64,000 nt of DNA, from contig OY970332.1 of assembly GCA_963717435.1 (NCBI GenBank), forward strand, positions 1,056,001 through 1,120,000. Reading direction: 5' to 3'. The notes beneath the pieces are model-generated. The model saw nothing but the letters and a program-made list of their open reading frames with translations, was not told the origin of the DNA and searched no databases. Below are positions 10,024-63,587 of this stretch, one piece after another. The position numbers and the translations under genes are program-made. Position 1 is the stretch's first letter, and every line of letters starts with the position of its first letter. Origin of the DNA: an uncultured bacterium. Lineage in GTDB: Bacteria > Babelota > Babeliae > Babelales > Babelaceae.

Positions 10024-10084
10024 AACCGCTCGTCCCGAGTGTTTTTCGTAGCGAAGCGAAGAAAAATGTATCGAGGGATGGGCG
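10024..10084 (+). repeat. Structured palindromic repeat, left flank of GIY-YIG gene
   Basis: aaccgctcgtcccgagtg-tttttcgtagcgaagcgaagaaaaa-tgtatcgagggatgg. Confidence 0.9.
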
Positions 10085-10107
10085 TTAAAGAAAGATATAT
10101 TAAAGTT

Positions 10108-10392
10108 ATGGAATATTTTTTTGTTTATATTCTTAAATGTGCTGATGGTTCATATTATGTGGGCCATACGGATAATATTGAAAAAAGAATTATAGAACAC
10201 AAAAGTGGTACTCATAAGGGATTTACATCTAGACGTCTGCCGGTAAAATTAGTTTTTCAACAAGAATTTGAATCTAGGGATGCAGCATTCGTTGCAGAAA
10301 GAAAAATAAAGGAATGGTCACGCAAGAAAAAAGAGGCGCTAATAAAAAGAGATTTTGATTTATTGTCTGAGTTTTCAAAAAAGAAATTTTAA
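10108..10392 (+). CDS. GIY-YIG nuclease, small stand-alone UPF0213/YhbQ-like
   Basis: FVYILKCADGSYYVGHT, R..EH, FT..R.P, AE..IK..SR..K..LI motifs; the extension from 9994 is translated repeat, so ATG 10108 is the likely start. Confidence 0.9.
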   Translation: MEYFFVYILKCADGSYYVGHTDNIEKRIIEHKSGTHKGFTSRRLPVKLVFQQEFESRDAAFVAERKIKEWSRKKKEALIKRDFDLLSEFSKKKF

Positions 10393-10408
10393 TCTTTTTC
10401 AATCTGCC

Positions 10409-10469
10409 CGCCATCCCTCGATACATTCTACTTCGCCAAGGCTTCGTAGAACACTCGGGACGAGCGGTT
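10409..10469 (-). repeat. Structured palindromic repeat, right flank (inverted)
   Basis: Reverse complement: aaccgctcgtcccgagtg-ttctacgaagccttggcgaagtagaa-tgtatcgagggatgg. Confidence 0.9.
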
Positions 10470-10498
10470 GTTTAGCTATACAATTTACGTAAAACTAC

Positions 10499-10538
10499 CA
10501 AGTAAAAACGGGACTTTTTAGGGTCCCGTTTTTACTTG
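10499..10538. terminator. Bidirectional intrinsic terminator
   Basis: caagtaaaaacgggac...gtcccgtttttacttg long inverted repeat. Confidence 0.75.
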
Positions 10539-10547
10539 CACTAAACT

Positions 10548-11054
10548 TTATTGCTCTTCTTCTTCATCCATTCTATCTTCTTCATCAACCGTCATAATAT
10601 TCATGATCGAAACCGCCATAAATACCGGACGAAGTTCATCAAGAGCCGAAAAATCAAACTCTTCTTCTGACATCATTTCTTCTAATTTTGCTTCAAACTG
10701 TTCATATTTTGCAAAGCGCTCGTCAGCCAATTTTAACCAGTTTCCGGTTTTGATTATATCTTTAAGAGTTTGTTCAAGTTCTTTTCCAAATTTAACAAAT
10801 TCAGCAAGACCGCCCTCTTTTTCCATGAATATAGAAAGTCCCGCCCTTGCAGCTGCAAGTCTGCCAATTAAACCGTTTTTAACAGTTTTATCAACATTTT
10901 CCAAAAGCAATACTCCCTTAATTAAAACCTCTGTCTCTTCGTAGATGGTCATGATCCCGTAGTTTTGCTCAAAGAGATACGCCCATTCAACATCTATCTG
11001 ATTGTTTTTAAAATCATTTAAAAAATCAAAAAGCTCTTGTTTCAATTCTGACAT
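10548..11054 (-). CDS. Acidic hypothetical protein
   Basis: 168-aa ORF with AAGGA RBS and downstream terminator. Confidence 0.7.
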   Translation of the reverse strand: MSELKQELFDFLNDFKNNQIDVEWAYLFEQNYGIMTIYEETEVLIKGVLLLENVDKTVKNGLIGRLAAARAGLSIFMEKEGGLAEFVKFGKELEQTLKDIIKTGNWLKLADERFAKYEQFEAKLEEMMSEEEFDFSALDELRPVFMAVSIMNIMTVDEEDRMDEEEEQ

Positions 11055-11217
11055 AGTTGTTCCTTAGAGTATTATTTTTAGCGTGTTAAAAGTTTTAATT
11101 TTAAGCAATTATAGCAAAAGAAAAGTTATAAATCTTGAAAATTTTAAATAATTAAAGCTTAAATGAAATTATCAAGCAGGGGTAATTTATAAAAAGTCTA
11201 TTATTGGGGGGAACAAT

Positions 11218-12412: not shown

Positions 12413-12414
12413 AT

Positions 12415-13863: not shown

Positions 13864-14061
13864 ATTAGGACCAATAAAAAATTAAATTAAATAAGAGACA
13901 CAAAATAATTAAACTAATTATAGAATAATTATTAAACTCTTTCAAAAAATAGATTTAACCCCCTAAATCAATTATGTGTATAAAATTATAAAATTTTGTA
14001 AAATTATTTTTACCTATATAATTATATAACTATAAAAAATTACTCACGTAAAAAGAGGCAT

Positions 14062-15255
14062 TTGATGGAAACAGAATTACTTAAAAGTAACAGCTTGGGA
14101 AAAAGCGCAAATAAAAATACAAGCACGGACATAAACCCAAATAAATTTATCGTGGACCAAAAATCTCTTGTCAGCCTGCTCACTTCTATGCAGCCAATAT
14201 GCACAAAGCGAACCGCGATAGATTCGACATCTTCTGTATTGTTTCAAGTGGGAAACAAAGAACTAATATTAAAAAGCACAGATCTTGAAATAAGTTTGCA
14301 AGCAAGTTGTGCGCTATCTGAAAGTAGCTTTACAGAGAACCAGTCTTTTTTGGTTCCAGGAAAACGCATATTTGATGTTGTAAAAGAACTAGATGATAAT
14401 ATCACCTGTTCCGTTGAAAGTAATCAACTTACATTAAAATCTAACGGCGTAAATTTGGCGCTTAATATTAAAGATGCGCAAGAGTTTCCTCCATTTCCGG
14501 AGCGCATAGAAAACTTAATGCATATAAACGCAACAAATTTAAGAAACATGCTTGATGACGTTGCATTCTTGATACCACAAAATAATGCAAACTCTGCACT
14601 TAACGGGCTCTTATTAGAGATATCGGCAAAAGAATTTTCTATGACAGCGACAGACGGTCACTGCTTGGCGCGAGTAAGCAACACAACTTATACACTTTCA
14701 GAAACAAAGTCTTGGCTATTACCACGAAGAGCAATATTTGAGTTAAAAAAGATTTTGGAATCTTCACAAGACAATACTGTATTTTTGGGTATCTGCGGAA
14801 ACCAACTTGTGTTTTCTGGCGAGTCTTTTAATTTCTTTACAAAATTACTTGCAGATCCATTTCCAAATTATAGACCAATACTTGATAGGACAGATTTTGT
14901 TACGGCCAGCTTAGACAGAACAAGATTTATTAAGACACTACGCAGATCAGTTTCGCTTTTATCTGGGCAATTTATTGCAACAAAATTTAATTTCTCTTCT
15001 GATGGACTTAAAGTATCAATGAACAACAAAGAAGTTGGTATGCTTGACGAGCACATGCCCGTTGCAAACTATTCAGGATCAGAACTTGAAGTTAGATTTT
15101 ATGCGCCTTATTTGTTAAGTGGGATTCAAGTCATTGAGACTGAACTCGTTAAATTTTATTTAAAGAATGGCGCGAAGCCGATTATTTTTGAATCTGATGG
15201 CGAGTCGTTTAATACAACTTATTTGGTTATGCCTGTTTCAAACACTACTAAATAG
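14062..15255 (+). CDS. dnaN: DNA polymerase III beta sliding clamp
   Basis: STDLEI, ATDGH.LA, FPNY, YLVMPV; followed by recF. Confidence 0.95.
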   Translation: MMETELLKSNSLGKSANKNTSTDINPNKFIVDQKSLVSLLTSMQPICTKRTAIDSTSSVLFQVGNKELILKSTDLEISLQASCALSESSFTENQSFLVPGKRIFDVVKELDDNITCSVESNQLTLKSNGVNLALNIKDAQEFPPFPERIENLMHINATNLRNMLDDVAFLIPQNNANSALNGLLLEISAKEFSMTATDGHCLARVSNTTYTLSETKSWLLPRRAIFELKKILESSQDNTVFLGICGNQLVFSGESFNFFTKLLADPFPNYRPILDRTDFVTASLDRTRFIKTLRRSVSLLSGQFIATKFNFSSDGLKVSMNNKEVGMLDEHMPVANYSGSELEVRFYAPYLLSGIQVIETELVKFYLKNGAKPIIFESDGESFNTTYLVMPVSNTTK

Positions 15256-15280
15256 TTTAAACTAATTAAATAAATTTATT

Positions 15281-16369: not shown

Positions 16370-16461
16370 ACCGGCTATTTTGCGTGATATAATTATTCTT
16401 GACAAACATGACATAAATTCCAAATATTGCCATACTTACAGGCTTTTTTTGATATTTATGT

Positions 16462-16489: not shown

Positions 16490-16495
16490 TATTAT

Positions 16496-17256: not shown

Positions 17257-18635
17257 TTATCCCTCGTCATCAAATCGGGTTAATTCTCTAACATAATTTA
17301 AAAATACTGTGCCGGTTGGACCATTACGCTGCTTTCCTATAATAAGTTCAGACAAAGCGGGATTGTCAGTATCCGGGTTATAAACTATATCCCTATATAA
17401 AAACATAATAAGATCCGCATCCTGCTCAATCGCACCCGATTCACGCAAATCCGAAAGCATGGGCCGCTTATCCATACGCGCATCAACTGCACGAGAAAGC
17501 TGGGACAGGGCCAATATCGGGATTCCTAATTCCTTAGCCAAAGACTTCAATGATCTAGAGATATCAGAAACTTCCTGATGACGATTTTCATGTTTTCTAT
17601 GGGAATGAATCAACTGCAGATAGTCGATTATCAAAAACTGCAAATTATGCTCGATTTTTAATTTACGTGCCTTTGCTCGAACATCTGCAATACTCTGAAC
17701 AGCCGTATCATCGATAAATATATTAAGCTGAGACAATCTGCCAGCAGAATGCGTAAGCTCCAACCACTCATCAGATGTAATTGTCGCATTACGAATATTC
17801 TGGTGAGAAACTCCAGAATCGCAAGACAAAAGTCGGAGAGCCAACTGCTCCGCTGACATTTCTAATGACAAAAATCCAAGTGAAGTATTATTCCCGGAAG
17901 CAGCATTATGCGCAATCGACAACGCAAGTGCAGTTTTACCCATAGATGGCCTGGCTGCCAAAACAATAAAATCACCCTTTTGAAACCCTGAAGTAAATTC
18001 GTCCAGTTTTTTAAATCCTGAAGAAACTCCAGTGATCCCCCTGCTGTTACCCTTGATATCAGAAAGATGCTGAAAAGTTTTTTTCAGCCAAATAGTTAAC
18101 TGAACAAATTTGACTTGGTACGTTGTTCAGAAATCTGAAAAATAACTTTTTCAGCTTCATCCAAGACACTTTCGATCTCTTTGTCATTCTGGTCATAACA
18201 GTTGGTAATAATTTGGGTAGCAGAAGAGATAAGCTCTCTTAATACTGACTTGTCTTTTATAATTTGGGCATGTTGTTCAATAAGACCCAGTGCAGGAATC
18301 TCTTCTTGCAAAGAAAGCAGATAGACAATTCCGCCAATGGCATCAAGTTGCGCCATTTTATCAAGTTCATCTTGCAACGTCACAATATCAACACGCTGGT
18401 TGCGCGTTGTAATATTCAACATTGCCTGAAAAATTGTCTTATTAGACGGAGTATAAAAATCACTAGGCGCAAGCATCTCCAAAATATTATTTAACGTTGA
18501 GTCGTTAAGTAATATTGCACCCAAAACTGCCCGTTCAGCTTCTAAGCTAAACGGCAATCTTTTGCCCAATATTTTTTCCGCAACTACAAGTTTATTTTTT
18601 TCGGCCGCTTGCTTAAAAAACTCTTTTTTTTGCAT
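17257..18635 (-). CDS. dnaB: Replicative DNA helicase, one frameshift at ~18105-18111
   Basis: N-domain ORF 18096-18635; the shifted frame continues ..VQLTIWLKKTFQHL..GITGVSSGF..LAARPSMGKT..SDLRESGAIEQDAD. Confidence 0.92.
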
Positions 18636-18637
18636 TT

Positions 18638-23557: not shown

Positions 23558-23578
23558 AATTTTATTACCAAGTTAATT

Positions 23579-23660
23579 ACCATCCCTCGATACATTTTTT
23601 CTTCGAAAAAACACTCGGGATGAGCGGGCATCTTGGCGAAGACGGGACGAGCGGGGTATA
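23579..23660 (-). repeat. Structured palindromic repeat plus partial second copy
   Basis: ccatccctcgataca-ttttttcttcgaaaaaa-cactcgggatgagcggg, then tcttggcgaagacgggacgagcggggtata. Confidence 0.9.
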
Positions 23661-28913: not shown

Positions 28914-31904
28914 TTACTGTTTTAAAACTTTAACGCATCTTCTGCACAACCCATCAACACCGGGCTCGCTATCCCATTGCCAACATCTTGGACACTTCCC
29001 GCCAATCGCATGCGTAACTTTTGCATATATTCCATCAGCTAACTTTGGCAAACTGTCGTTGTCTTTGTTTAACTTAAACTGCGAAATAACAAGTAGCTCT
29101 TTAAAAAACTGTTCAATCGAATCTGTAATATTATTAGAGTCACCAGACTTTTTTATTCTCTTAAACAGATCCCGCAAGATTTCAAATTCTTCTAAATTTA
29201 AATCTATATAAAGGTCAACCGAAACATCAAGAGAATGTCCAACAACCGCCTTGGCTCTTAATTCTTCGATACTTTTTAAAATTATAGATCTAACGGCTTT
29301 TAAAACTTCCCAAGAATCCTGCCATTTTACTATCTCATCAGATTTTAAGATCGCCATCTTGGCTTCCATAATTTTATCTATTTCCAAAAACGGAGCCTGA
29401 ACTGGAACAGATTCACCAATCTCATATCCAACAACTGATTTAGCAAACTCTAAGTCTGAAAAGCTTTGTAAATGCACAGATTTTGATTTATTTTTTTGAT
29501 AAAAATCTGTAACAATTTCAGCATTAAATGACATAATAGGCGCAGTCAGTTTTGTAAGCGCATCTAAGATATACCAAATTGCAGTTTGCGCAGATCTTCT
29601 TAATTTGCCATCAGCCACTTCAACGTAAAGCCTGTCTTTTATAATATCCAGATAAAAAGAGCTAAGCTCCGCAGAACAATAATCAGCAAGTTCATGAAAA
29701 ACTGCAGTAAAATCACAAGCGTTATAGTTTGCCAAAATCTTATTTTGCAACTCATAAAGTTTTACAAGTGCGTATCTGTCAATTGGTGTAAGCTCTTCAA
29801 CTGAAAGTTTATCTTTTTCAATATCAAAATCATAAAGATTTGAAACAAAAATCGCTGCGTGTTTCTAATTTTTCTGAACACTTCAGCAACATTTGCAGTA
29901 AATTCTGTGAAACAACCGGGTCGCCATCATGGCCTACACTAGCAACCCATAAGTCGCAGCCCATCGGTCCCTACTTTATCAATAATATCTTGCGGCGCAA
30001 CAACATTACCCAAGAGATTTGGACATCTTGCGCCCTTTTTCATCAACGGTATACCCGTGAGAAATTATCTGACGCGTGCAAGCTTTATCTTCCAAAACTA
30101 AACTGGTGATAAGTGAACTCTGGAACCAACCCCGATGCTGATCAACACCCTCACAATATACATCTGCGGGGAAATGTAAGTTCGGATTTTTTTCAAGAAC
30201 TGCATAATGGCTAACACCAGAATCGAACCAGACATCCAAAATATCCTGCTCTTTTTTAAAGTCGTTTTTTATTACATCCGGGACAAGCTTACTATTTTCA
30301 CAAACTCTTTAATATCCACAGCATCCCAGTATTCAATCCCATTTGAGCAACATCGGATGCAACAGCATTACACAAGTTTTGAATCTATAAAAGTAAAATC
30401 ACAATATTTACATAATTAGTGCAGGTATTGGCACGCCCCAGATTCTTTGGCGGGAAAAGCACCATTCCCATCTATTTTCAACTGTAGCTTTTAAGAAATT
30501 TCTTCCACGATCCGGGATAAAGTTTATCTTATTTATACTCTCAAGCGCCGCTTGTTTAACATTTTGTGTATTCAAATCAAAGAACCACTGACGAGTTGCT
30601 CTAAAAATTAGCCCATTGCGGCAACGCCAACAATGCGGGTAACTATGCGTAATATTATTTTTAAATAGCATCTTGCCAAGTTCAGCAAGTTTTTTTATCA
30701 CCCAAATTTGTCCATCAGAAACGGGCATGCCCTCCAGTTCTATTGGATCAATTCCAGCAGAATATTTACCGTCGGGTGATACTGGGCAGTATATTTCGAG
30801 CCCATTTTTTACACCAATTTCATAATCCACTGGTCCGCAACCTGGGGCAACGTGAACAGCAGCTGTCCCTTCGTCAAGACCAACAGAGGCATCCAAAACA
30901 ATTGGAACCTGCAAGTTTTTTACAAATGGGTGAACAACTTTTGCTCCAAATAATCTTGATGGCAAAAACTCTTCGATAATTTCCAAATCTTGATCAAGAA
31001 GCTTTACAAATTTTTCAGCTACCTGCGCGCCGATTATAATATTTTTTGTACTATTATCTTTTATATTTTTAATTTTTATTAGTTTATATGGCGCATCTTT
31101 GTGGATCAAAACAGCTCTATTTAGTGGCAAAGTCCAAGGTGTTGTTGTCCAAACCGCGATACTTATCGGGCCTGAAACTTTAGGAAACAAAGCTTTCTTG
31201 TCTGAGTCGCTAAGTTCAAACTCAACGTATACTGATGGGTCTTTTCTGTCTTGATATTCGATTTCTGCTGAAGCAAGCGTTGTCGCACAAGAGGGGCACC
31301 AAGCAACAGTTTTGTTTTTTCGTTCTATATACCCTTCTTCGACTAATTTGCCAAAAGCTCTTAAAGTCGCCGCTTCATATTCCGGGGCCATAGTTATATA
31401 CGGATTTTTGAAGTCCATTAAAACCCCAAGTTTTTTAAACTCTCCCCGCTGGATATCGATCCATTTTGACGCGTACTCTCGACAAGCTTTTATAAATTCA
31501 ACCCGCTGTCCAGAAGACAATAAATTGTCATTATTTTTGTTCGATTTATCTGATAAGCTTGGGTTTTCACTAACAACTTTTAGCTCTATTGGCAGGCCAT
31601 GGCAGTCCCAACCCGGTTTAACTGGCACATGATACCCGGCCATGCGTCTATATTTGCAGACAATATCTTTTAAGATTTTATTATAAGCGTGCCCAAGATG
31701 AATGTTCCCATTTGCATAGGGGGGGCCATCATGTAAAATATATTTTGTTTTGCCGCTGTTATGCTCATAAGATTTTTTATACAAATCTTCATCTTGCCAA
31801 CGTTGCAATAATACTGGGTCATCTTGTTTTGAATTGCCACGTATGGGAAAACCAGTTTGCGGTAAATTCAATGTATCTTTAAAACTTTTTGATTCAGTTG
31901 ACAT
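28914..31904 (-). CDS. ileS: Isoleucine--tRNA ligase (multiple indels in 29820-30410)
   Basis: [36 protein letters not shown]-terminal CPRCW...CRRC. Confidence 0.95.
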
Positions 31905-31958
31905 ATGCACACCTAAATAGGATTTATTTTTACAATAATCTCAGTATACTTAAAACTT

Positions 31959-33323
31959 ATGAACAGTCCAAAAAAAATCGGGATCTGGGGCTCCGGAGTG
32001 GTCGGCAGATCTGCAATAAAATATTTTTCCGCCCGATCTGATTATCAAATTGTCGCACTTGCAGACAAAAAAGAGCCCGATGCCCAATTTCTAGAATTTC
32101 TGGGAAAATATACTACCCCCAAATTCTATCCTGAAGAAAATATTCAAGAGTTTTTAGAAATCTGCGACGGAATTCTCCCGTCACCGGGCATAGACTTAAG
32201 AAAATATAGTAAATATAAGCATAAATTTATAACTGAAGCCGATATATTTGCGCAAAACTGGGATAAAACTAAACCGGTAATTGCCATAACAGGCACAGTG
32301 GGTAAAACTTCTGTTGTTACTTTACTTTCTAAAGTATTAGAACAAAATAATTTACGTGTCGCTACTGGCGGCAATATCGGCACAGGCATGCTTGATCTTT
32401 TAGAGAATCAAGAAAATTATGACATTGCTGTGCTTGAACTTTCAAGCTTTCAATTAGAATACTGTAAAATATTTGCCCCCGATCTTGCGATAATTACCAA
32501 TATTTTCCCGAACCATTTGGACAGGCACGGAGACATGCAGAATTATCTGCAAGCAAAATTTAATATTTTTTTGAACCAAAACAATAATCAAAAACTGTTG
32601 GTCCCTGAAGAGCTTCGCCCTCAAATAGAAAATTTAAGAAAAACTGACACTTGCCCGGCACCCTTCGATACATTTTTCTCACTTTGTTCGAAAAACACTC
32701 AGGGCGAGCGCGTGCCTGGTGACGGGTGTATCGAACCATGCGGGCCGAGAAGCTCAAAATTCTCATACCCCATTCCCGATATATCATATCCAGTAAACTG
32801 GGTAATAATATTTAAAGCCTGCGAGATTATGGGCATAGAAATAAAAAACTTAGATATAAATAACTTAGAAATACCAGATCATAGAGTTGAATTTGTTCGC
32901 GAATTTAACGGCATAGAGTTTTATGACGATTCAAAATCAACAGTGTGTCAGGCGACGCTTGCAGCCGTAGAAAAACTTAATAACAAATCAGAAACAAAAC
33001 CCATAATTTTATTTTTGGGGGGTATCTCAAAAGGCGTCGACAGATCTGGGCTAATTAAAGATCTAAAAAACAAAGTTTCAGAAATTATCTGCTTTGGATC
33101 TGAAGCTGAAAATTTAAATAAATTTTGCATAGAGAATTCGATACCAAGTAGTTTTCATAAAACTTTAGAAGAAGCTTTTTCTGCGTGCATCTCTTCAAAT
33201 ATGTGCTCAACAAAAAATAGCGCCCGCGTTTTATTTTCCCCATCCGGCGCAAGCTTTGATCTTTTTAAAGATTATAAAGATCGGGGAAATAAATTTAAAA
33301 ATCTGGTAAATAGTTTAAAATAA
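31959..33323 (+). CDS. murD: UDP-N-acetylmuramoyl-L-alanine--D-glutamate ligase
   Basis: SPGI, ITGTVGKTS, GGNIG, LELSSFQL, NHLDRH, DDSKST, SPSGASFDLF. Confidence 0.95.
   Translation: MNSPKKIGIWGSGVVGRSAIKYFSARSDYQIVALADKKEPDAQFLEFLGKYTTPKFYPEENIQEFLEICDGILPSPGIDLRKYSKYKHKFITEADIFAQNWDKTKPVIAITGTVGKTSVVTLLSKVLEQNNLRVATGGNIGTGMLDLLENQENYDIAVLELSSFQLEYCKIFAPDLAIITNIFPNHLDRHGDMQNYLQAKFNIFLNQNNNQKLLVPEELRPQIENLRKTDTCPAPFDTFFSLCSKNTQGERVPGDGCIEPCGPRSSKFSYPIPDISYPVNWVIIFKACEIMGIEIKNLDINNLEIPDHRVEFVREFNGIEFYDDSKSTVCQATLAAVEKLNNKSETKPIILFLGGISKGVDRSGLIKDLKNKVSEIICFGSEAENLNKFCIENSIPSSFHKTLEEAFSACISSNMCSTKNSARVLFSPSGASFDLFKDYKDRGNKFKNLVNSLK
32652..32744 (+). repeat. Nested palindromic repeat inserted in frame in murD
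   Basis: Near-identical to the reverse complement of 63483-63572. Confidence 0.92.
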
Positions 33324-36787: not shown

Positions 36788-36846
36788 TACTAACCCTTTT
36801 TAAATTTTTATTCTTACTCTTAAATCACTATTATTAATTTTATTTA

Positions 36847-38217: not shown

Positions 38218-38257
38218 TGCTATGCCCTTTTTAAATTTTTGCTCTTGCTATTAAAAA

Positions 38258-39409: not shown

Positions 39410-39450
39410 AATTAGCCCTTATATTATTAGTATTATTATTAATTTATTTA

Positions 39451-40866
39451 TTAAGTTGGCATCTGCAACGTTGTCCACGGCGCGGTCACACTTGCGCTCG
39501 TTATCGATGTTGTAGCCGTAACAGCACCGGCATTCACCCCCGATGTCTGATTTGCACCCGTTGTTCCATTAAATGCACAAGTTGTCCTCAAATATGCATT
39601 ACTTGACCCTGAAGCGGCAAAACGAATTCCATACGAGTTTGCCGCACTGCTTCCGGTATTTCCAATAAACTCACAATCTTTAATTTCATTAGTGTTAACT
39701 GTTCCACTAAACAAATACATACCTGCTGCGGTAGCATTTGTAGTCGTGCTCAAATTATAATTTGCTACACAACGCAAGAAGACATTCCCTACAGAAGATT
39801 GAACGAGGAATCCAACCACTAGAGACCCACTCGCGCCTGAAACTATTGAAAAATTATTGGAAGCGACACAATCCATAAAAACACTAGCATTCGCACCGTT
39901 AACAAGGAATCCAAACGTATTAAGCGCACCAGTATTTGAAGTAGAGTTATTGCCATTTGCTATACAAGCTATGAATGTGTTTGTTATTCCGGGCGTTGAA
40001 AAGCCTACACATTCGGCATTAGCCGAATTATTTAAAGCCTGGCAATTTTTAAATACGTTATATTCAGAATTTGCTGATGTCTGAAAGCCTATAAAGAAGG
40101 AGCTGGCGCTCGCCGCTGGAACCATATTATTTCTTGCTATGCAATCAACAAAATAGTTTCCTATAAGTTCCGCAGCAACTGAATTAAAATATACTCCGTA
40201 CATTTGGTGCGCAGTTGAAATCGAATTAGAGTTAATATCTAATCTTACAAAGCTGCAATAGCTTGAATCTGTGAGAGTCACTATACCAAAATTGGTTGAT
40301 GTAGTAGCCCCGCCATTTGTGCTGAACACGCAATCTGAGACAAGTATTCTTGCGCAATTGGATAAACTCAAAACAAAATCTGCAGTTGTTGCCGTACTGC
40401 TGTTAATTATTTTGCAATTGGTTATCGAAGACTCTGTTATATTTGTACCGCCCCTTATAGTTGAAGTTCCATTGAAATCTATTCCACGAACCTGGCAGCC
40501 ATCGATAATTAAATTCTGCAAATATAGATTATTGCACCCGGCGTTGGCGACAATTCCAGACTGTGTAAAATTTTTTATATAGCCATTAGATATTTTAACA
40601 TCCCCAACACCAGCATCTATCTGGATCCCATTGCAGCTTGCTGTTGCGCTACTTTGATAGATAACTCTTCCATTAAGATCAAGATTTACATAACTTGATT
40701 GGATTCTAATTGTCCCGTTTGTTGCATCACCAGTTGAAAAAATATCGTCATCTAAAATATAGTTTCCCGAAGTTGTGATTAACCAATCAACTGATTTAAT
40801 TTTAAAACTGTAAGACAAAAATAAAATTAATATTAAAAACCCATATGCTAACTTTTTGCTGTACAT
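39451..40866 (-). CDS. Secreted right-handed beta-helix protein (paralog)
   Basis: As 36847-38217. Confidence 0.8.
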   Translation of the reverse strand: MYSKKLAYGFLILILFLSYSFKIKSVDWLITTSGNYILDDDIFSTGDATNGTIRIQSSYVNLDLNGRVIYQSSATASCNGIQIDAGVGDVKISNGYIKNFTQSGIVANAGCNNLYLQNLIIDGCQVRGIDFNGTSTIRGGTNITESSITNCKIINSSTATTADFVLSLSNCARILVSDCVFSTNGGATTSTNFGIVTLTDSSYCSFVRLDINSNSISTAHQMYGVYFNSVAAELIGNYFVDCIARNNMVPAASASSFFIGFQTSANSEYNVFKNCQALNNSANAECVGFSTPGITNTFIACIANGNNSTSNTGALNTFGFLVNGANASVFMDCVASNNFSIVSGASGSLVVGFLVQSSVGNVFLRCVANYNLSTTTNATAAGMYLFSGTVNTNEIKDCEFIGNTGSSAANSYGIRFAASGSSNAYLRTTCAFNGTTGANQTSGVNAGAVTATTSITSASVTAPWTTLQMPT

Positions 40867-40945
40867 TACTATCGCCTTTTTTTTACTTTATTACTTCACC
40901 CAATATGTATAAAATTTAATTTATTTTGTAAATAATAAAAAATTT

Positions 40946-42772
40946 TTAACTCGCTATTCTCAAATTTGTCCATGGAGACATAGCGCTACTTACCCTTGAC
41001 GAAGGAGACACGCCACCGCCACCACCAGGTGTCATCATTGAACCTACTGGCAAGCCAAACAATTGATTTGCAATCAATGGCGTTGTTACGCCATTTGCAT
41101 ATGAAATATTCTGGGTAAAAATATTATTACTATTTAGTGTATAAATTCCATACGAGTTGGCATCCACCGTTGCTGCATTTTGGCTAACCATGCAACCTGA
41201 AATCACATTGCTTGATGAACTGGCATCTAAGTATATGCCGTAAGCCTGCTGCAGCGACGTGGCTGCCGTATTACTTTTTATTACGCAATTCGATATATTA
41301 TTTCCCGTGCTATTAGCTGCACCGGAACTGAGGTATATACCAATAAAAACTTGACCTTGTGCAGTATTTGATTCGATTCTGCAGGACGTAATATCGTTTG
41401 CTTGTGCCTGCGCTATTTGGATCCCATAGAAGGTTGTTGTATGCAGATTACCTGATATCAAACAATCACTAATGAAATTACTATAGCTGAGTGTACCTAC
41501 CACAACAAGGCCGGGGCTAAGACGTTGATTATTTGTAATTAAACATCTTAAGACTGAATTTAATGCTGAGGCTGAAATATAAAAAGCATTTAAAAAACAT
41601 GTATTTCCGCTAATCACGCAATCTTCAAATACATTACCTGCTGTCAGGCCCGACGAAGCAGGGGAAGCTGAACTATTCCCAATTAAAGATACAAATGCTC
41701 CCGATGATGAAGAAGTAGCAATGTTTCCCTGAGCCACACAGTTCCTGACAAAATTATTAGAGCTGTATTGAAGGTTAAAACAAGTAAAATCGACAGGAAC
41801 AGTATTGCCAAGAAATTGACAATTTTCAATAAAATTTTGGCTACAGGTATTAGCAGACAGAGAATTCAGCGCTATCCCGTAAGATACGCCTGCGTTGATG
41901 AGATTATTTCTAATTGAGACATCTGAGATAATATTATTAGAGCAAAGTGATGATACAGTTGTAAGCTGTATGGCATACAGATTACCAGTTGAGCCACCTC
42001 CCGTGTTTTCACTTATATCAATATTTTTTAAAGAACAAGAATTTGAGTCTGTTAAGCCTATAAATGAAAAGCTACTGCTGTTTGTAGTATTATTATTAAA
42101 CGTGCAACCTGAAACAAGAACTGATTGGCAGTTTGAAAGATTTATGCCAAAATCTGAAGAGGCATTGGAAAAACAGCCTATAAAGTTGCAGTTATTGATT
42201 TGCGAAGCCGTTATATTTGACCCACCCGTTCCGGTAAAAGTACCAGAAAAATCTATACCCCGTGTCTGGCAATTTGCAAAATCAAGATTTTGCAAAGTAA
42301 TCACACTACAACCTGCCTGAGCTAATACGCCAGCACGGGTAAAGCCAAGTAGCGTCCCGTTTTGTATCGTTACGTTTGTAACACCGGGCGCAATTACGAT
42401 TCCGTTACAACTTGCTGTCGCCGTTGTCTGGATCACTGAATATTCGTTCAGGTCCAATGTAACATAACTTGCCTGAATCAAGATCGTTCCGTTAGGATCG
42501 CCGCTTGATGTAATATTTGTTCCAAGTTCGTAGTTACCGGAATGCGTAATTAAAAAATCTGTCGTATGCGTTGTGTTAAAAAAAGATATTAAAAAAAATA
42601 AGCTTAAAATTAATTTATTAAATTCTTTTGCCCGCATCCCTCGATACACCCTTCGGGCACTCCCAGGCTTCGTGCAAGACTTCGCCGGGCGCGGGGGGAG
42701 GAGCGGCTTTTGGGAATTATTTTTTTGAGTTTTAACCACCTTGATAAACTTATTAATTGTTTTGCAAATCAT
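40946..42772 (-). CDS. Secreted right-handed beta-helix protein with repeat-derived N-terminal insert
   Basis: ITHSGNY.L, VTLDLN, C.I..N repeats; AAGGA RBS before 42772. Confidence 0.8.
   Translation of the reverse strand: MICKTINKFIKVVKTQKNNSQKPLLPPRPAKSCTKPGSARRVYRGMRAKEFNKLILSLFFLISFFNTTHTTDFLITHSGNYELGTNITSSGDPNGTILIQASYVTLDLNEYSVIQTTATASCNGIVIAPGVTNVTIQNGTLLGFTRAGVLAQAGCSVITLQNLDFANCQTRGIDFSGTFTGTGGSNITASQINNCNFIGCFSNASSDFGINLSNCQSVLVSGCTFNNNTTNSSSFSFIGLTDSNSCSLKNIDISENTGGGSTGNLYAIQLTTVSSLCSNNIISDVSIRNNLINAGVSYGIALNSLSANTCSQNFIENCQFLGNTVPVDFTCFNLQYSSNNFVRNCVAQGNIATSSSSGAFVSLIGNSSASPASSGLTAGNVFEDCVISGNTCFLNAFYISASALNSVLRCLITNNQRLSPGLVVVGTLSYSNFISDCLISGNLHTTTFYGIQIAQAQANDITSCRIESNTAQGQVFIGIYLSSGAANSTGNNISNCVIKSNTAATSLQQAYGIYLDASSSSNVISGCMVSQNAATVDANSYGIYTLNSNNIFTQNISYANGVTTPLIANQLFGLPVGSMMTPGGGGGVSPSSRVSSAMSPWTNLRIAS
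42631..42706 (-). repeat. Structured palindromic repeat variant in the 5' end of the CDS
   Basis: catccctcgatacac-ccttcggg-cactc-[ccaggcttcgtgcaagacttcgccggg..]-gggaggagcgg. Confidence 0.85.
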
Positions 42773-55404: not shown

Positions 55405-57825
55405 ATGAAAAACTTGTCAGTAGGTCTATTGACAGTATTGATGCTGTTAGCTTGCCCAAGCTTACAGTCTGAGCAGCTTCAAGAAACTGAGCAAACCCAA
55501 GAATTGCAAAATCAAGTCGACCCGGCTGAGAATATCAACAAATATTCAGCTGCACTTTTAAGACTTAACGAGCGACTGCTTGAAGTCTTCCAGTCAACCG
55601 GGCACTATATAAACAAAGGCAACTCGAACTTAAATTCAGAGCAAAAAAAGGCTGCCACAAAATGGGTGCAAGAAAACCAAAAAAACATAAATTATATCAA
55701 TAAGCAGTTAATCGACACCCCATCAGAAAATTTAATTACCCAATACGCTACAAAAATCAATTGCATGGTTTTAAACCTAAACGTAGCTATAATTTCAAAT
55801 TTTAAAAACTTGATTAATACTGACATAACAATCAAAAGATCTGTCTTATTAGAGCCCCATGCTATAGAAATAGACAGTGTTATTGCTGATGTTGATACAA
55901 AGCTTGGAACAGCCTCAAAAAAGATAAATAATCTGGGTCTTACAAACTTGAATCTGGCTGTAAGAAAGCTTGAAGATATAGATTTTAGATATGGCATAAC
56001 CCCCAAAATCAAAACTGCATTAATGGGCGCTTTTGTCTTGTGGGTAGCTTGGATTTTTACTCCGGAAACATATCTTGATTCCCTAAAACACAAACTTAAT
56101 GTCTTTGATTTTTGGTCAAAAACTCAGACAAAACTCCAAGAAAACAACGTCCCTGCTGAACCTTCTAAATCCAACACAAATAGTAGGCTTAGGATAAATC
56201 CCCTGACTAGGAGAATTGAAAGTAGATTCCCTAAGAAACAAACTAAAGCAAAGAAAACTGACGCAAACTCAGGGAAAAAAAGCCTAGTTAAGGGCTTTTT
56301 GGGAGGCATAATAAGTGCGGTATTACTTGATGCTTATAAAAAAGATGGTGGCGATTTTATAAAAGATTTACATCATAACTTTCTAAGCGGTATAAGTTCA
56401 GGCGCCAGCAAGTTTTATAGCTTATTGCGCGGATCAGGTACAAAAATTGGAAGTAATGGCTACGAATATGTCAGTTCATCAAATACATTAGAAGATCAAA
56501 AGCTAGTGGGCCTTGAAGATCAAAAGCAGGCATTGGGACAACTTGTTAATGCGCTTAAAAATTTGCAAGTCTTTGAAAGAGCAAAAATAAATATTAATAA
56601 AGCATATTTGATTACGGGCCCTGCAGGTTGCGGTAAAAGCTATTTGGCAAGAGCTGTGGCAGGATCGATCAATAAAAGCTTAGAAGAAAGTGGACTTTCA
56701 AATAAAATCGGGTTCAAAGAAGTTAAGTTCTCTGATCTTATGTGGAAAAAGGATGACGGAATTTCAGAACTGATTAAAGAAGCGCAATCTGAGGCGCCAT
56801 GTATTTTATTTATAGACGAAATTCACTTATTAAGATTACAAACAGAGGGCAACGGCAAAGCTCTAACAGAGTTTTTGACAGTTTTAAGTGGCATAAATTC
56901 AGACAATAATGGGCTAAAACCGGTAATATTAATTGCTGCAACAAATAGACCCGATCTTCTTGACCCTGCACTATTACGTTCAGGTCGATTTGAAGTTGTC
57001 AAAGTTGAAAAGCCAAATTTTAATACTAGAAAACAGTATTTTGAAATAATGTTAAAAGATCAGGGGATCAATCCTGAAAATTTTGATATCGAAAGATTGT
57101 CGCAGCTTACAGAAAACTGCTCGTATGCGCAACTTGATCAGGTTATAAAAAATGCAAGATTCAAGGCAAAATCGCAGGCACGCGGTATCTCTTCGACAAA
57201 AGATCTTGAAGATAGTATCGACACTATAGTATTCAAATTAAAAAACGAATCTGAGTTGCCAATATCTCAAGAATCAAAAAATATAATCGCTGCACATTTG
57301 GCAGGAAAAACTTTATCGCACATATTGTTTGACGGGAAAATTAATCACAAAATATTGAAAGTAACACTGAGAGCCAAAATCCCTGCTGTTAAAGAAAGCA
57401 TGGTATATTCACCGCAGGATAAGATAAAAGCTATCAAAGAAAAGAAAGTTAAGTACGGAAATATTTTTGTTTACTCAAAAGACGAGATCGCTAATCTTGA
57501 AACGTCTGAGAGCTTAGAGTTGCAAATTAAAATATTATTATCTGGCGCTATTGCTGAGCAAATAATTTTAAACACACAACATGTTGTGAAAAAATCTGAC
57601 AAAACTAAAGCTTTAGAGCTTGCAAAAAGAATAATATATAACGGTGTTAGACCTGAAATATTAAGTAAAAACTTGCAAAGAGAATACGAGAGCAAAGCTG
57701 TACTATTACTTGAAAAACTTGAACTTGAAACAAAAGCTCTTGTTGCAAGTAATAAAGAAAAATTAGGCAAGATTTACTCTGATCTTCTTGAAAAACAGAC
57801 TCTTTCAAGATCTGAGTTGTTATAA
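55405..57825 (+). CDS. FtsH-like AAA+ ATPase lacking the HExxH zinc motif
   Basis: GPAGCGKS, ILFIDE, AATNRPDLLDPALLRSGRF; AAHLAGK at the protease site. Confidence 0.85.
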   Translation: MKNLSVGLLTVLMLLACPSLQSEQLQETEQTQELQNQVDPAENINKYSAALLRLNERLLEVFQSTGHYINKGNSNLNSEQKKAATKWVQENQKNINYINKQLIDTPSENLITQYATKINCMVLNLNVAIISNFKNLINTDITIKRSVLLEPHAIEIDSVIADVDTKLGTASKKINNLGLTNLNLAVRKLEDIDFRYGITPKIKTALMGAFVLWVAWIFTPETYLDSLKHKLNVFDFWSKTQTKLQENNVPAEPSKSNTNSRLRINPLTRRIESRFPKKQTKAKKTDANSGKKSLVKGFLGGIISAVLLDAYKKDGGDFIKDLHHNFLSGISSGASKFYSLLRGSGTKIGSNGYEYVSSSNTLEDQKLVGLEDQKQALGQLVNALKNLQVFERAKININKAYLITGPAGCGKSYLARAVAGSINKSLEESGLSNKIGFKEVKFSDLMWKKDDGISELIKEAQSEAPCILFIDEIHLLRLQTEGNGKALTEFLTVLSGINSDNNGLKPVILIAATNRPDLLDPALLRSGRFEVVKVEKPNFNTRKQYFEIMLKDQGINPENFDIERLSQLTENCSYAQLDQVIKNARFKAKSQARGISSTKDLEDSIDTIVFKLKNESELPISQESKNIIAAHLAGKTLSHILFDGKINHKILKVTLRAKIPAVKESMVYSPQDKIKAIKEKKVKYGNIFVYSKDEIANLETSESLELQIKILLSGAIAEQIILNTQHVVKKSDKTKALELAKRIIYNGVRPEILSKNLQREYESKAVLLLEKLELETKALVASNKEKLGKIYSDLLEKQTLSRSELL

Positions 57826-57841
57826 GAATTAATTTTTTACC

Positions 57842-57905
57842 ACCATCCCTCGATACATTTTTCTTAGCTATCGCTACGAAAAACACTCGGGACGAGCGGG
57901 TATAG
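57842..57905 (-). repeat. Structured palindromic repeat between convergent genes
   Basis: ccatccctcgataca-tttttcttagctatcgctacgaaaaa-cactcgggacgagcgggtata. Confidence 0.92.
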
Positions 57906-57916
57906 AACTATAGAGA

Positions 57917-58387: not shown

Positions 58388-58409
58388 AATTTTACTCCCA
58401 AATTTTTAT

Positions 58410-59033: not shown

Positions 59034-59209
59034 GTAAATCTCTCTAAACTTAAATTAAATTATCAAGCAATTTAAATTTGATCTAAAATTTTATACTAAA
59101 AAAAAATTATGCTGGTAATATAACAAGAAAAATAAATTTAACCAAAAGTGAATAACTAAAAATAAAAAGTAAAAAATAAAAAAATAGTTAAAAACAAATA
59201 GGGGAAAAT

Positions 59210-60454: not shown

Positions 60455-60457
60455 GTC

Positions 60458-61672: not shown

Positions 61673-61675
61673 AAA

Positions 61676-62215
61676 TTATCTTACAGGACAAAAACCTAAA
61701 AGACACGCTCCACGACGAACATGATCTTGAAACTCTTTATCTGATTCAGAACCTGCCTCTGAGTGTTCCACAATTAATATCCCATGATTGTCATGTTTCA
61801 TGTTCCAAGTATAATATTTGGGATTTTTTAGGCCAAGATACCCAGAAATCTCTTTAACAATTTCTGATTCGTTAGCGTTTGAGCTTTTTAAGCTGGGTCT
61901 TGAAATTCCGCGAACTATATTATTAAATTTTGCCTTGGCCATATAATCTGTAAAAACTTCTGGCTTGTTCCATATGTCAGCAAGTTGGGTGCAACGTTCA
62001 TTTTTATTATAACCCGCAACGCCTTTAAAAGTATTAAAGTCTGGATTATCAACAAAATATGCCGCTTTTTCAAGGTTAAACACTGATTCGTTGGCAAGTT
62101 CATGCAGAAGAAACTCTGACAAATTTTTTGCCCCATGGACCGATATCATTTTTTCTGGCAAACAACTCAAACATTCATAGATTGCGTGAGTGCGATTGCC
62201 GTTATTATTTTTCAT
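61676..62215 (-). CDS. Hypothetical protein
   Basis: 179-aa ORF with AGGT-type RBS. Confidence 0.7.
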   Translation of the reverse strand: MKNNNGNRTHAIYECLSCLPEKMISVHGAKNLSEFLLHELANESVFNLEKAAYFVDNPDFNTFKGVAGYNKNERCTQLADIWNKPEVFTDYMAKAKFNNIVRGISRPSLKSSNANESEIVKEISGYLGLKNPKYYTWNMKHDNHGILIVEHSEAGSESDKEFQDHVRRGACLLGFCPVR

Positions 62216-62297
62216 ACCACCTATCCTTTTTTTGGTATTATTTGGGTATTAATTTAAACAGCTTCTAGTAACATATTAGCAGACAAAAAAAATAAAA

Positions 62298-62320
62298 GGC
62301 AATAAAGAATCTTTATTGCC
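62298..62320. promoter_or_regulatory. Perfect inverted repeat between divergent genes
   Basis: ggcaataaag-aat-ctttattgcc. Confidence 0.35.
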
Positions 62321-62402
62321 GAAAAAACAGAAATAGTGGTAGGCTAATTTAAAAGTGATATTAAAAAAGGCGTAGTAAATCCAAAAAAAGAAAATTTAGA
62401 CT

Positions 62403-63458
62403 ATGAAAATAAAATTCATAATACAAATTCTAGTTGTGCTATCTTTGATAAATTTGGAGATAATTTCAACTCGAAGTATTTTCAGACCCGATGATCCACT
62501 GACACCAGAAATCACAACCCAATGGAAAGATGGCGGTAAAAAATATTACCTAAGACATACAAGGCTTTCATATGTGCCGTTATTTAAAAAATTTGATAGA
62601 GATTTTTTTGATAGTCATATGTTACCAGATGGCAAAATCAACTTCAGAAGTGATCCTGATAAATCTGTAAATGGGTCAGAACTAAAAGAACTTTTTGAGG
62701 AACTGCTTAAAGAGATTTATCAGCAAAAAACTGAATACACCAATTTTACTGTGCTGAAAAGACGGGACTTTAATATGAGCAACCAATCTGGAGTAATAAT
62801 ATTAAAGTGCAAAAAATATCCCTTTGTTGTGAAGATTTTTATCGAAACTCCTGAAAGCTTTGTTCGCCCATTTTCAAAAGGGTTCGAACCCTCAGTATTT
62901 TTTATTATGGGTGGCGGCATAAACAGGTATTTGTCTGGATTTACGCGTATAAAAAATCTTGAGGTGATAAAGAAACAGATAGAAGAGGACCCAGTCTGGT
63001 CGAAAAAAATCGATGTCCCAAGAAAATGGTACTGGGCGCCGAAAAATAACAAATGGTTTACTTTAACTGGAAAAAATATTGGCCAACAAAAAACAACATC
63101 TATAGAACTACCGTCAGTTTATGCGATAGTCAGTGATGCGATAACTGTTGACAAGGGATTCTCTATATTCAACAAACAAAATAGAAAAGATGTTATAGCG
63201 CTTTCTAAATTTTTAGGTAACAGAATAGACCCGCACATAGACAATTATTTACGCGAAAAAGATACCGGATTATTAGTTATTGTAGATAGTGAGCATTTTC
63301 CTACAATGGTTGGACTTAAAAAACCACTCACATGTGACAGTTATGCAGGATGGTATTCAAAACTTGTCGTGAAATGTTCAAAAGATATGTTCGCACAGGA
63401 CAAAAGAGCGAGAAGAGCCGCACAATTTAACGAAGAGCCCGAATACTTGGCAGTGTGA
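62403..63458 (+). CDS. Hypothetical exported protein
   Basis: 351-aa ORF with N-terminal hydrophobic signal. Confidence 0.75.
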   Translation: MKIKFIIQILVVLSLINLEIISTRSIFRPDDPLTPEITTQWKDGGKKYYLRHTRLSYVPLFKKFDRDFFDSHMLPDGKINFRSDPDKSVNGSELKELFEELLKEIYQQKTEYTNFTVLKRRDFNMSNQSGVIILKCKKYPFVVKIFIETPESFVRPFSKGFEPSVFFIMGGGINRYLSGFTRIKNLEVIKKQIEEDPVWSKKIDVPRKWYWAPKNNKWFTLTGKNIGQQKTTSIELPSVYAIVSDAITVDKGFSIFNKQNRKDVIALSKFLGNRIDPHIDNYLREKDTGLLVIVDSEHFPTMVGLKKPLTCDSYAGWYSKLVVKCSKDMFAQDKRARRAAQFNEEPEYLAV

Positions 63459-63482
63459 TAGCTACCAGAAGATTAATTTTTT

Positions 63483-63587
63483 ATGGTTCGATACACCCGT
63501 CACCTAATCCCGCGCTCGCCCTGAGTGTTTTTCGAACATAGTGAGAAAAATGTATCGAAGGGTGCCGGGCACTCACCACGAGCGGGT
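63483..63587 (-). repeat. Nested (repeat-within-repeat) palindromic element
   Basis: Outer TGGT/ACCA-stem copy on the minus strand encloses an inner CCCT/AGGG-stem copy on the plus strand. Confidence 0.92.

Follow-up and report, generated by a model that had tools for sequence, protein, structure and literature searches.

Hairpin repeats and a nuclease gene in the window

The window, the whole 64-kb stretch of DNA analysed here, carries a cassette of about 450 bp (10021-10472) composed of a hairpin repeat on the forward strand, a gene for a 94-aa GIY-YIG protein and a second hairpin on the reverse strand. Further copies of the repeat occur alone, nested in one another or inside open reading frames (ORFs). 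S and S' denote the two strands of a 4-bp stem.

10021..10087 (+): left cassette repeat; highest-scoring covariance-model match genome-wide, 69.1 bits
10108..10392 (+): gene for a 94-aa single-domain GIY-YIG nuclease; Pfam PF01541, E 2e-16
10405..10472 (-): right cassette repeat, inverted relative to the left one; covariance model 64.8 bits; S=TCCC/GGGA, distal stem TTCTAC/GTAGAA
23574..23632 (-): solo short-form copy; distal stem T7/A7, closed by a C-GAA-G triloop
32640..32750 (strand not assigned): composite copy in the Mur-ligase ORF 31959-33323 (+); inner copy at ~32652-32716 (-), S=CCCT/AGGG
~42630..42710 (-): arm-bearing copy in the 5' part of ORF 40946-42772 (-); extra 33-nt hairpin arm between S and GAGTG
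57837..57904 (-): solo copy, S=TCCC/GGGA, directly downstream of ORF 55405-57825 (+)
63477..63590 (-): outer copy of a nested pair, S=TGGT/ACCA, 9-bp distal stem; covariance model 34.1 bits
63507..63571 (+): inner copy, S=CCCT/AGGG, inside the distal loop of the outer copy and opposite to it in orientation; covariance model 64.6 bits

Every copy named in a sequence-only reading of this DNA was found within 1-5 nt of where that reading had placed it; the solo copy at 23574 had not been listed. The stem pairs it reported were also recovered: TCCC/GGGA near 10026 (+), 10409 (-) and 57842 (-), CCCT/AGGG near 63509 (+) and in the Mur-ligase ORF, and TGGT/ACCA in the outer copy at 63483-63587 (-).

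Three helices make up the repeat, an outer one (CCGC/GCGG), S with its 4 bp and a distal one, and a fixed loop of GAGTG and TGTATCGA lies between the helices. The left cassette repeat reads CCGCTCG, S=TCCC, GAGTG, a distal stem TTTTTC/GAAAAA with a GNA/GNA inner loop, TGTATCGA and S'=GGGA, and DNA folding recovers its nested helices.

Two composites depart from this simple form. Within the Mur-ligase ORF, an outer (+) copy with a degenerate 5' half holds an inner (-) copy in its distal loop; the frame stays open through the insertion, which encodes ~38 added residues and interrupts the Pfam Mur_ligase_M match. The nested pair at 63477..63590 separates the convergent ORF 62403-63458 (+) from the 3' end of dnaA (63613-63999, -), and the same composite is present at four further genomic sites, one of them with a different inner distal stem. 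The arm-bearing copy, one of seven in the genome, has a distal stem reduced to CCC-GAA-GGG, an inner stem already reported and traced here to ~42637-42700 (-). This copy is not listed by the covariance model at E <= 0.01, and its predicted fold is no better than those of shuffles.

Covariation around a fixed internal loop

The DNA hairpin is genuine and covaries strongly. Across 109 copies from many genomes, CTCG (5' of S), GAGTG and TGTATCGA are near-constant, and 98.1% of cells are paired versus 64.4% after shuffling, and none of 500 shuffles reached the observed value; these cell counts overstate the number of independent events, because copies in one genome share descent. Sliding the partners against each other in the same set gave at most 65.5% pairing, and double changes are seen at 9/9 pairs. 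The S helix, which played no part in sequence selection, is 97.7% paired. The covariation proposed from the window thus persists in a larger alignment.

Within the genome of origin, an anchor regex gave 82 exact matches. In 73 of these, S and S' are complementary at all four positions; 1000 shuffles of the partners gave 31 on average and 44 at most. The inner stem, scored on its first and last five nucleotides, had also been said to covary, and it is fully paired (5/5) in 72 of the 82 versus a shuffled mean of 25. Where the same anchors matched by chance in unrelated phyla, comparable pairing was absent. The view that pairing is always kept and the motifs are invariant holds within the window but is too strict beyond it: the S stem is imperfect in 9/82 exact matches, and the motifs drift slightly across genomes (CTCG to CTCA or TTCG, TGTATCGA to CGTATCGA, GAGTG to GAGTA). 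Single-sequence DNA folding energies of seven window copies were only modestly better than those of shuffles (z +0.9 to -3.4), so the element is not detectable by stability alone.

Two covarying helices around fixed nucleotides are the pattern expected of a fold that presents a protein-recognition loop, which is how the sequence-only reading had interpreted the repeat. A candidate reader of that loop is the GIY-YIG nuclease encoded between two copies. The pairing itself may be maintained by selection on point mutations or by modules passing from one copy to another.

Signs of a DNA structure

G-T pairs are scarce in the stems (4/1110 positions), and C-GNA-G loops close 89/104 copies versus 7.7 in shuffles. 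GNA triloops closed by C-G are typical of stable DNA mini-hairpins. Both features are signs of a DNA structure, not an RNA one. Comparing G-T with A-C mismatches gave no indication of the active strand, the mismatches being too few (4 vs 1).

The covariation pattern is formally the same as that of a structured RNA, and the copies at 57837, 63477 and 23574 directly follow gene ends, as might be expected of a repeat that works at the RNA level, whether as a structured regulatory element, as a terminator or as a small RNA with a loop recognised by an RNA-binding protein. Against such a role stand the near absence of G-U-type pairs, the DNA-like triloops, and copies that lie within coding regions and take both orientations relative to their host ORFs (17 same, 10 opposite). 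A role as a plain terminator, doubted from the outset, is unlikely because copies occur in both orientations and inside ORFs. The Rfam search proposed earlier was run over the whole 64-kb window and returned no match at the gathering score. The canonical Ssn enzyme, a relative discussed below, is also reported not to bind RNA (PMC11893778). Taken together, an RNA function appears very improbable.

The GIY-YIG nuclease and its flanking hairpins

The PF01541 domain spans residues 3-74 of the protein (42-113 of the scanned 132-aa frame), with no second domain; an NCBIfam search returned a sub-threshold match to a group I intron endonuclease and nothing else. Single-strand DNA nucleases of the Ssn type, together with their NTS/SRM hairpin repeats, have been described by Chenal et al. 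(Nat Commun 2025; PMC11893778). Tyr7, Tyr17 and Glu64 lie at or adjacent to the positions mutated in Neisseria meningitidis SsnA (Y6, Y17 and E64; PMC11893778) and align with residues of an Azospirillum homolog. The latter, flanked by canonical SRM pairs, shares 39% identity with the protein (E 1e-17) and served as the stand-in for canonical Ssn in pairwise comparison, where it scored 57.8 bits versus 64.7 bits for Bacillus subtilis YazA. The best solved-structure matches are UPF0213 proteins (PDB 1zg2 and 1ywl, E 1e-14). In a tree of 41 sequences, the Dependentiae clade falls with UPF0213/YazA-like proteins, split from two canonical Ssn sequences with support of 97/86; this tree is thinly sampled and midpoint-rooted, its bootstrap is unsettled, and canonical Ssn is represented by those two sequences alone.

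The cassette recurs across genomes. Inward-facing hairpins flank both sides of 21/30 homologous GIY-YIG loci from nine families, and two further loci end at a contig edge with a hairpin on the visible side; the 30 loci are the best-scoring matches rather than a random sample, and related genomes among them are not independent. At four loci (L124, L128, L130 and L137) the two ends are identical in the matched stretch, yet they differ between genomes. The suggestion that the repeat is not a terminal inverted repeat finds no support here: the copies at 10026 (+) and 10409 (-) bound a nuclease cassette as its inverted ends, a layout kept at those 21 loci, and 12/18 close copy pairs in the genome are convergent.

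Hairpins and nuclease also co-occur. By hand tally, hairpins are present in 40/48 genomes with a close homolog (E <= 1e-25) versus 26/102 without one. The nuclease homologs are multi-copy, with up to eight matches per genome, some broken by stop codons; the genome of origin has one intact gene copy of the clade. These observations favour the reading, held at a probability of about 0.6, of a miniature nuclease element with the repeat as its hairpin partner.

The hairpins could instead have been moved by another agent, such as a host or other transposase, replication slippage or gene conversion, with the GIY-YIG gene as a selfish passenger or a homing endonuclease between doublets. A close homolog is absent from 26/66 other hairpin-bearing genomes sampled, one of which (G003) has at least 35 hairpins and a weak match only. 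GIY-YIG enzymes hydrolyse DNA and, as a superfamily, lack strand transfer or joining, so the arrival of copies at new sites is not accounted for by nuclease chemistry. Gene-less convergent doublets are possible landing sites, and the distal stems and the 33-nt arm are variously recombined among copies, which suggests inter-copy exchange. Set against this are the bracketing of the gene at 21 of the 30 loci in nine families and the outcome of a search for an IS200/IS605-type Y1 transposase (PF01797), which gave 0 matches in the genome of origin and was positive in 6/14 known genomes used as a control. Homologous Ssn enzymes, moreover, are described as specifically recognising their own flanking hairpins (PMC11893778). 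Movement by another agent is considered improbable.

Copy number, forms and distribution

The 1.2-Mb genome of origin contains 117 covariance-model matches. A stem-filtered list of 111 copies replaced a regex that allowed one mismatch per motif and gave 213 matches, mostly chance ones in coding DNA. Apart from the cassette, the ~115 remaining genomic copies are derivatives that lack the gene and occur as solo hairpins, as convergent doublets, nested in one another or with the extra arm. Eleven of the 12 convergent close pairs are gene-less, with gaps of 14-62 nt. The 111 copies show no orientation bias with respect to GC-skew replichores (60 vs 51, p 0.45).

Among sampled genomes, covariance-model matches occur in 67/151, covering 49/96 genera and 14/18 families; those with names, from a collection scan with a narrowed gap, are Dependentiae/Babeliales MAGs. 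The exact motif was found in 41/201 genomes, and a reversed-pattern control gave one match overall. The spread is patchy and burst-like: relatives range from no copies to at least 35, and 6/19 genomes of the same family are positive.

About a quarter of the copies (27/111, 24%) lie in frame within long open frames, and Pfam domains were recognised in 19/20 host ORFs tested. In MnmG the repeat adds 72 nt (24 codons) that are missing from 11 aligned family orthologs; RecR and MiaA carry inserts as well. The insertions are lineage-specific.

These patterns also bear on whether the system has been domesticated and is no longer mobile. The copies would then be kept for a host function of the kind suggested for Neisseria, in which the nuclease cuts single-stranded DNA at hairpins and so restricts DNA entering the cell or influences recombination. 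Retention of the motif over an order-level sample and the single intact nuclease gene in the genome of origin fit such a role, as does the report that SsnA lowers transformation of N. meningitidis by NTS-bearing DNA ~5-fold (PMC11893778). The burst-like distribution, the existence of pseudogenised nuclease copies and the insertions into housekeeping proteins, which resemble selfish spread, argue against it, and domestication is given small odds.

Proposed mechanism

On the favoured reading of the repeat as partner of a nuclease element, the hairpin most likely acts as folded single-stranded DNA that the nuclease would read; we infer this reading step by analogy with Ssn nucleases. The hairpin may be exposed in this form when DNA is replicated, repaired or taken up, for example. 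In all three helices (outer CCGC/GCGG, 4-bp S and distal) pairing alone would matter, leaving their sequences free to drift and covary. The nuclease is expected to read the fixed CTCG 5' of S and the GAGTG/TGTATCGA nucleotides between the helices, and the same bases would set the polarity of the site. The predicted cut lies a few nucleotides to the 5' side of the hairpin. What this scheme says of binding, strand choice and cut site is borrowed from relatives at ~39% identity. Hairpins have spread to new sites, among them probable loops in housekeeping proteins, where in-frame, stop-free copies would be the survivors; a part of the nuclease in this spread is likewise conjectural.

In a bolder form of this reading, the unit at 10021-10472, only ~450 bp long, would be a mobile element that is autonomous. 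It would have a single gene, that of the 94-aa GIY-YIG nuclease, of a clade nearer UPF0213/YazA than canonical Ssn, and the product would read a two-tier DNA hairpin via the fixed internal loop. This version is put forward tentatively and is thought less likely to be right than wrong.

Implications

The repeats amount to a natural mutagenesis table for one nuclease-hairpin pair, in which covarying positions need pairing only and conserved ones are presumably read; such a table would be helpful if Ssn-type enzymes become single-strand DNA tools. For annotators, the repeats account for odd inserts of 20-40 residues in conserved proteins of these genomes. The published SRM motif overlooks an entire class of these repeats, together with one order or more of intracellular bacteria. 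Dependentiae join Rickettsia as bacteria whose housekeeping genes are invaded in frame, here with a linked enzyme gene. If the ~450-bp unit is indeed autonomous, the logic of a nuclease with its own hairpin would no longer be confined to the published Ssn clade, the UPF0213 proteins, which are widespread and uncharacterised, would become candidate domesticated descendants, and the enzyme would be a candidate for RPE-like gene invasion in intracellular bacteria.

Comparison with known systems

Rickettsia palindromic elements (RPE), which Ogata et al. reportedly described in 2000, are said to be short palindromic repeats that lie in frame in housekeeping genes and leave the frames open. The likeness is one of behaviour alone: in both cases, a palindromic repeat lies in frame inside protein-coding genes in the small genome of an intracellular bacterium. 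Unlike RPE, the present repeat belongs to another phylum and sequence family and has a candidate enzyme physically linked to it.

REP/REPIN repeats and their RAYT enzymes share with this system an oriented conserved box, an enzyme gene between inverted hairpins and gene-less doublets, and the REP/REPIN hairpin is thought to act as single-stranded DNA. RAYT is an HUH tyrosine transposase of the IS200/IS605-like Y1 type, whereas the enzyme here is a GIY-YIG hydrolase; REP sequences are extragenic, whereas the present repeats are often within genes.

The UPF0213/YazA/YhbQ proteins are similar in length to the nuclease, provide its best solved-structure match and are its nearest tree neighbours. 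The YazA-type genes of Listeria, B. subtilis and Radiobacillus lie between trmN6 and rsmI and overlap annotated neighbours at both ends, so these three genes have no intergenic space for flanking hairpins. The nuclease clade described here, in contrast, is multi-copy and hairpin-flanked.

The closest system overall is Ssn with its NTS/SRM repeats. SsnA is described as a 94-aa single-domain GIY-YIG protein encoded between its NTS hairpins, which binds and cuts single-stranded DNA only, on one strand only and just upstream of the hairpin (PMC11893778). The present system likewise has a 94-aa single-domain GIY-YIG protein with the catalytic Tyr/Tyr/Glu, inverted hairpin repeats that bracket its gene, and roughly 100 or more scattered copies of that hairpin. 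Non-palindromic conserved flanks orient the hairpin in both systems, both are enriched in host-associated bacteria, and the 5' box CTC(G/A)T-CCC resembles the published GTCAT-(T)CCC box of NTS/SRM.

The two systems also differ. The present repeat has an extra tier, with outer, S and distal helices and the fixed GAGTG/TGTATCGA loop between them. The published SRM motif gave one match in the genome of origin versus one or two in each of five shuffles, and the same regex found four copies around the Azospirillum gene; the present repeat does not fit that motif. In the table of Chenal et al., the sole Dependentiae genome, that of Babela massiliensis, is entered with 0 SRM and no homolog (PMC11893778). 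The protein is no closer to canonical Ssn than to YazA and falls outside the two sampled Ssn sequences in the small tree. The 24% of copies that are intragenic also differ from the 2% given for NTS within genes (PMC11893778). The repeat and its nuclease probably represent a variant of the Ssn nuclease/hairpin system.

A covarying hairpin with a fixed internal loop

The source genome (G000, contig C1) is a single contig of 1,198,203 bp with a G+C content of 34.6%. Each copy of the repeat reads, from 5' to 3', as a short outer arm (most often inside CCGCTCG), a 4-nt segment S, GAGTG, a distal hairpin, TGTATCGA, the partner S', and a T followed by the outer partner, usually GCGG. The window contains eight hairpin copies, seven of which the covariance model recovers; in addition, a degenerate outer half surrounds the Mur-ligase copy. 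Every copy named in the sequence-only reading is present in the window sequence, but the one at 23574 had been overlooked.

Hairpin copies in the window (covariance-model matches unless stated)
10021-10087, +, left end of the nuclease cassette
10405-10472, -, right end of the nuclease cassette
23574-23632, -, hairpin copy, absent from the earlier list
32652-32716, -, copy in the Mur-ligase ORF
about 42637-42700, -, copy bearing an extra 33-nt arm (regex only)
57837-57904, -, hairpin copy
63477-63590, -, outer hairpin copy
63507-63571, +, hairpin copy

The anchor pattern CTCG-N4-GAGTG-N(9-60)-TGTATCGA occurs 82 times in the source genome. S and S' are complementary at 4/4 positions in 73 of these matches, against a shuffled-partner mean of 31, and the distal stem is complementary at 5/5 positions in 72, against a mean of 25. 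Seven fully Watson–Crick S/S' types are found in this genome: TCCC, CCCT, TGGT, CCCC, TACT, TCCT and TGCC, each with its complement.

An alignment of 109 copies from many genomes bears out the earlier claim of covarying stems. It derives from 122 relaxed matches with at least 4/5 distal pairs, less 11 resembling chance matches and two near-duplicates. Paired cells amount to 98.1%, compared with 64.4% after shuffling, a control that is blind to relatedness (0/500 shuffles as high), and no more than 65.5% when partners are slid; the slide control and a cross-phylum negative control are free of that weakness. Changes on both sides are seen at all nine pairs, and the S helix, which was not a criterion in choosing copies, is 97.7% paired. 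The cross-phylum control comes from a scan of one genome per species, in which the same anchors turn up in many phyla and are paired only in genomes whose titles name Babeliales, Dependentiae or TM6 and in a few other MAGs; pairing is absent from the lone matches elsewhere.

Copies that keep these fixed motifs and pair completely are also present in MAGs bearing the titles Alphaproteobacteria, Dehalococcoidia and Pseudomonadota (L063 and L064, with the title Alphaproteobacteria RI_34, and L019, L013, L048, L012 and L068). Either the repeat family extends beyond Dependentiae or these bins are mislabelled.

Distribution among related genomes

The covariance model, built on the 109-copy alignment, identifies 117 copies in the source genome. 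Of 151 genomes sampled from the phylum-level group, 67 have matches; all 67 belong to the same order, and they span 49/96 genera and 14/18 families, with per-genome counts reaching at least 35. The exact motif is present in 41 of 201 genomes, against one match in total for a reversed-pattern control. Copy number is patchy, with any covariance-model copy present in only 6 of 19 genomes of the source genome's own family.

A GIY-YIG nuclease gene between inverted copies

A 94-aa ORF encoding a bare GIY-YIG domain lies between the copies at 10021-10087 (+) and 10405-10472 (-). Of 201 sampled genomes, 140 contain homologs of this nuclease; a genome may have as many as eight matches, and some matches include stop codons. 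Among the 30 best homolog loci, taken one per genome from nine families, 21 have covariance-model hairpins to the left and right of the gene, each facing inward. The remaining nine comprise two at a contig end with the visible side positive, five one-sided loci and two without a hairpin. Several loci scored as misses show variant hairpins by eye. Minimal variants flank the GIY-YIG genes of L119, L122, L133 and L143, where the distal stem is missing, the S helix encloses an 11-nt loop with GAG at its start and TCGA at its end, and the outer arms CCGTTCG/CGAACGG are fully paired. At four loci, both ends are identical in the matched stretch, yet unlike the ends in other genomes. By hand tally over 150 related genomes, hairpins are present in 40 of the 48 that have a close homolog (E <= 1e-25), compared with 26 of the 102 that have none; these genomes are related rather than independent, and a p-value is therefore omitted.

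Two more mini GIY-YIG ORFs of 79 and 82 aa, belonging to a distant clade, lie at G000:C1:1023036-1023248 and 413544-413759, and hairpins of this family were not found near them. The cumulative GC-skew maximum, at ~11000 in the window (about 1,067,000 in the genome), adjoins the cassette and dnaN (14062-15255). The 3' end of dnaA (63613-63999) is about 50 kb from this maximum, and the skew minimum falls near 499,000 in genome coordinates.

Nested copies and optional arms

The 33-nt arm is optional and always lies between S and GAGTG; in the source genome it occurs in seven copies with differing distal stems. Copies are also nested within one another, and the composite at one site has a different inner module. 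Taken together, the nesting, the arm placement and the swapped inner module point to module exchange or site-specific re-insertion inside the hairpin. Close copy pairs in this genome are convergent in 12 of 18 cases, as at the cassette ends; 11 of these 12 are gene-less, with gaps of 14-62 nt.

The outer copy at G000:C1:291241-291370 holds two extra inserts, one of which breaks the CCGCTCG box; the second is an alternative form of the 33-nt arm that carries compensatory changes. Genome-wide, copies with an ATCACC/GGTGAT distal stem nearly always form a convergent doublet with a copy of another stem type (for example G000:C1:193745-193901, 238627-238777 and 1167748-1167862).

Copies within genes

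In the source genome, open frames of 200 aa or longer enclose 27 of the 111 stem-filtered copies, leaving 40 aa or more to either side of the copy; 17 copies share the orientation of the ORF and 10 oppose it. Pfam recognises 19 of 20 tested host ORFs as genes: PGI, MurB, GpsA, a SpoU methylase, MnmG, a transketolase-like enzyme, MnmE, a nucleotidyl transferase, AsnB, a class I tRNA synthetase, a Mur ligase, PGM, a glycosyltransferase, a heparinase-like protein, GH3, NurA, MiaA, RecR and a phosphoribosyltransferase. Several of these matches are stretched over the insert, with 117 profile positions spread over 164 residues for TrmE_N and 85 over 124 for Toprim_4 in RecR. The 24-residue (72-nt) block of MnmG that contains the repeat is missing from 11 family orthologs, and the Mur-ligase ORF (31959-33323) stays open through its composite copy.

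The window also contains split genes and paralog runs. DnaB helicase is encoded as two ORFs, for the N- and C-terminal domains (17257-17961 and 18096-18635, -), ~134 nt apart, and the covariance model finds no hairpin copy in this gap. A class I tRNA synthetase is likewise divided into catalytic and anticodon-binding ORFs (28914-29750 and 30408-31910, -), ~660 nt apart. Four DUF5122 beta-propeller genes and five beta-helix genes form tandem runs (1017-7180 and 35417-42772), with ankyrin and WD40 proteins nearby.

Folded DNA as the likely substrate

Several observations bear on whether the repeat acts as DNA or RNA. An Rfam search, proposed in the sequence-only reading, gives zero family matches in the window. 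G-T pairs occupy 4 of 1110 stem positions in the source genome and roughly 1% of cells in the cross-genome alignment. Of 104 copies, 89 have either C-GNA-G loops or inner loops of GNA/GNA type, against 7.7 in shuffles; loops of the C-GNA-G type are typical of very stable DNA mini-hairpins. Together with the occurrence of copies in both orientations and within genes, these features point to a repeat that acts as DNA rather than RNA. Single-copy folding energies are unremarkable, and copy orientation shows no bias relative to GC-skew replichores in the source genome; both are neutral on this question.

The data show directly the hairpin structure, the nuclease cassette, the co-occurrence of hairpin and nuclease, and the insertions. 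By analogy with its homologs, the nuclease would recognize the repeat as folded single-stranded DNA, with the fixed nucleotides setting polarity and the cut falling 5' of the hairpin. A GIY-YIG hydrolase cannot join strands. The earlier interpretation, that selection acts on a fold presenting a protein-recognition loop and not on a terminal inverted repeat, is partly supported: the data favour a recognition fold, but copies also act as inverted ends of a nuclease cassette.

Relationship to Ssn/SRM and UPF0213 proteins

Chenal et al. 2025 (PMC11893778) describe Ssn as a family of single-domain GIY-YIG proteins (N. meningitidis SsnA has 94 aa) whose genes are flanked by hairpin repeats termed NTS, or more generally SRM, which also number in the hundreds. 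Only the single-stranded DNA form of the hairpin is bound by the enzyme, and only one strand; the cut falls a few nucleotides upstream of the hairpin, and RNA and duplex DNA are ignored. The authors liken Ssn/NTS to insertion sequences and REP/RAYT and report enrichment in symbionts. Babela massiliensis, the sole Dependentiae genome in the paper's table, is listed with no SRM and no homolog. No account of this repeat in Dependentiae appears among literature-search listings on SsnA/GIY-YIG hairpins (from 2024) or on Dependentiae/Babeliales palindromic or repeat elements, or in one passage of a 2026 preprint.

The architecture, a GIY-YIG gene between hairpin repeats, is identical in kind. The window nuclease is homologous to Ssn via an Azospirillum protein (39% identity, E 1e-17) whose gene is flanked by canonical SRM pairs in our analysis. 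However, it scores slightly better against B. subtilis YazA and UPF0213 proteins in the PDB, and falls apart from two canonical Ssn sequences in a small, thinly sampled, midpoint-rooted tree with unsettled bootstrap values. Its closest named relatives are Methylobacterium and Sphingomonas proteins (53% identity), and the hairpins flanking the Methylobacterium gene are laid out alike: CTCAT box, S helix, GAG..TG loop half, distal stem, then a loop half that finishes in TCGA. The published SRM motif fails to describe the repeat of the source genome, giving one match there versus 1-2 in shuffles; this hairpin possesses additional helices and an internal loop of fixed sequence. Genic copies make up 24% in the source genome, in contrast to 2% for NTS (PMC11893778). 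The system is a homologous relative of published Ssn/SRM with the same architecture, a distinct hairpin and a larger share of genic copies.
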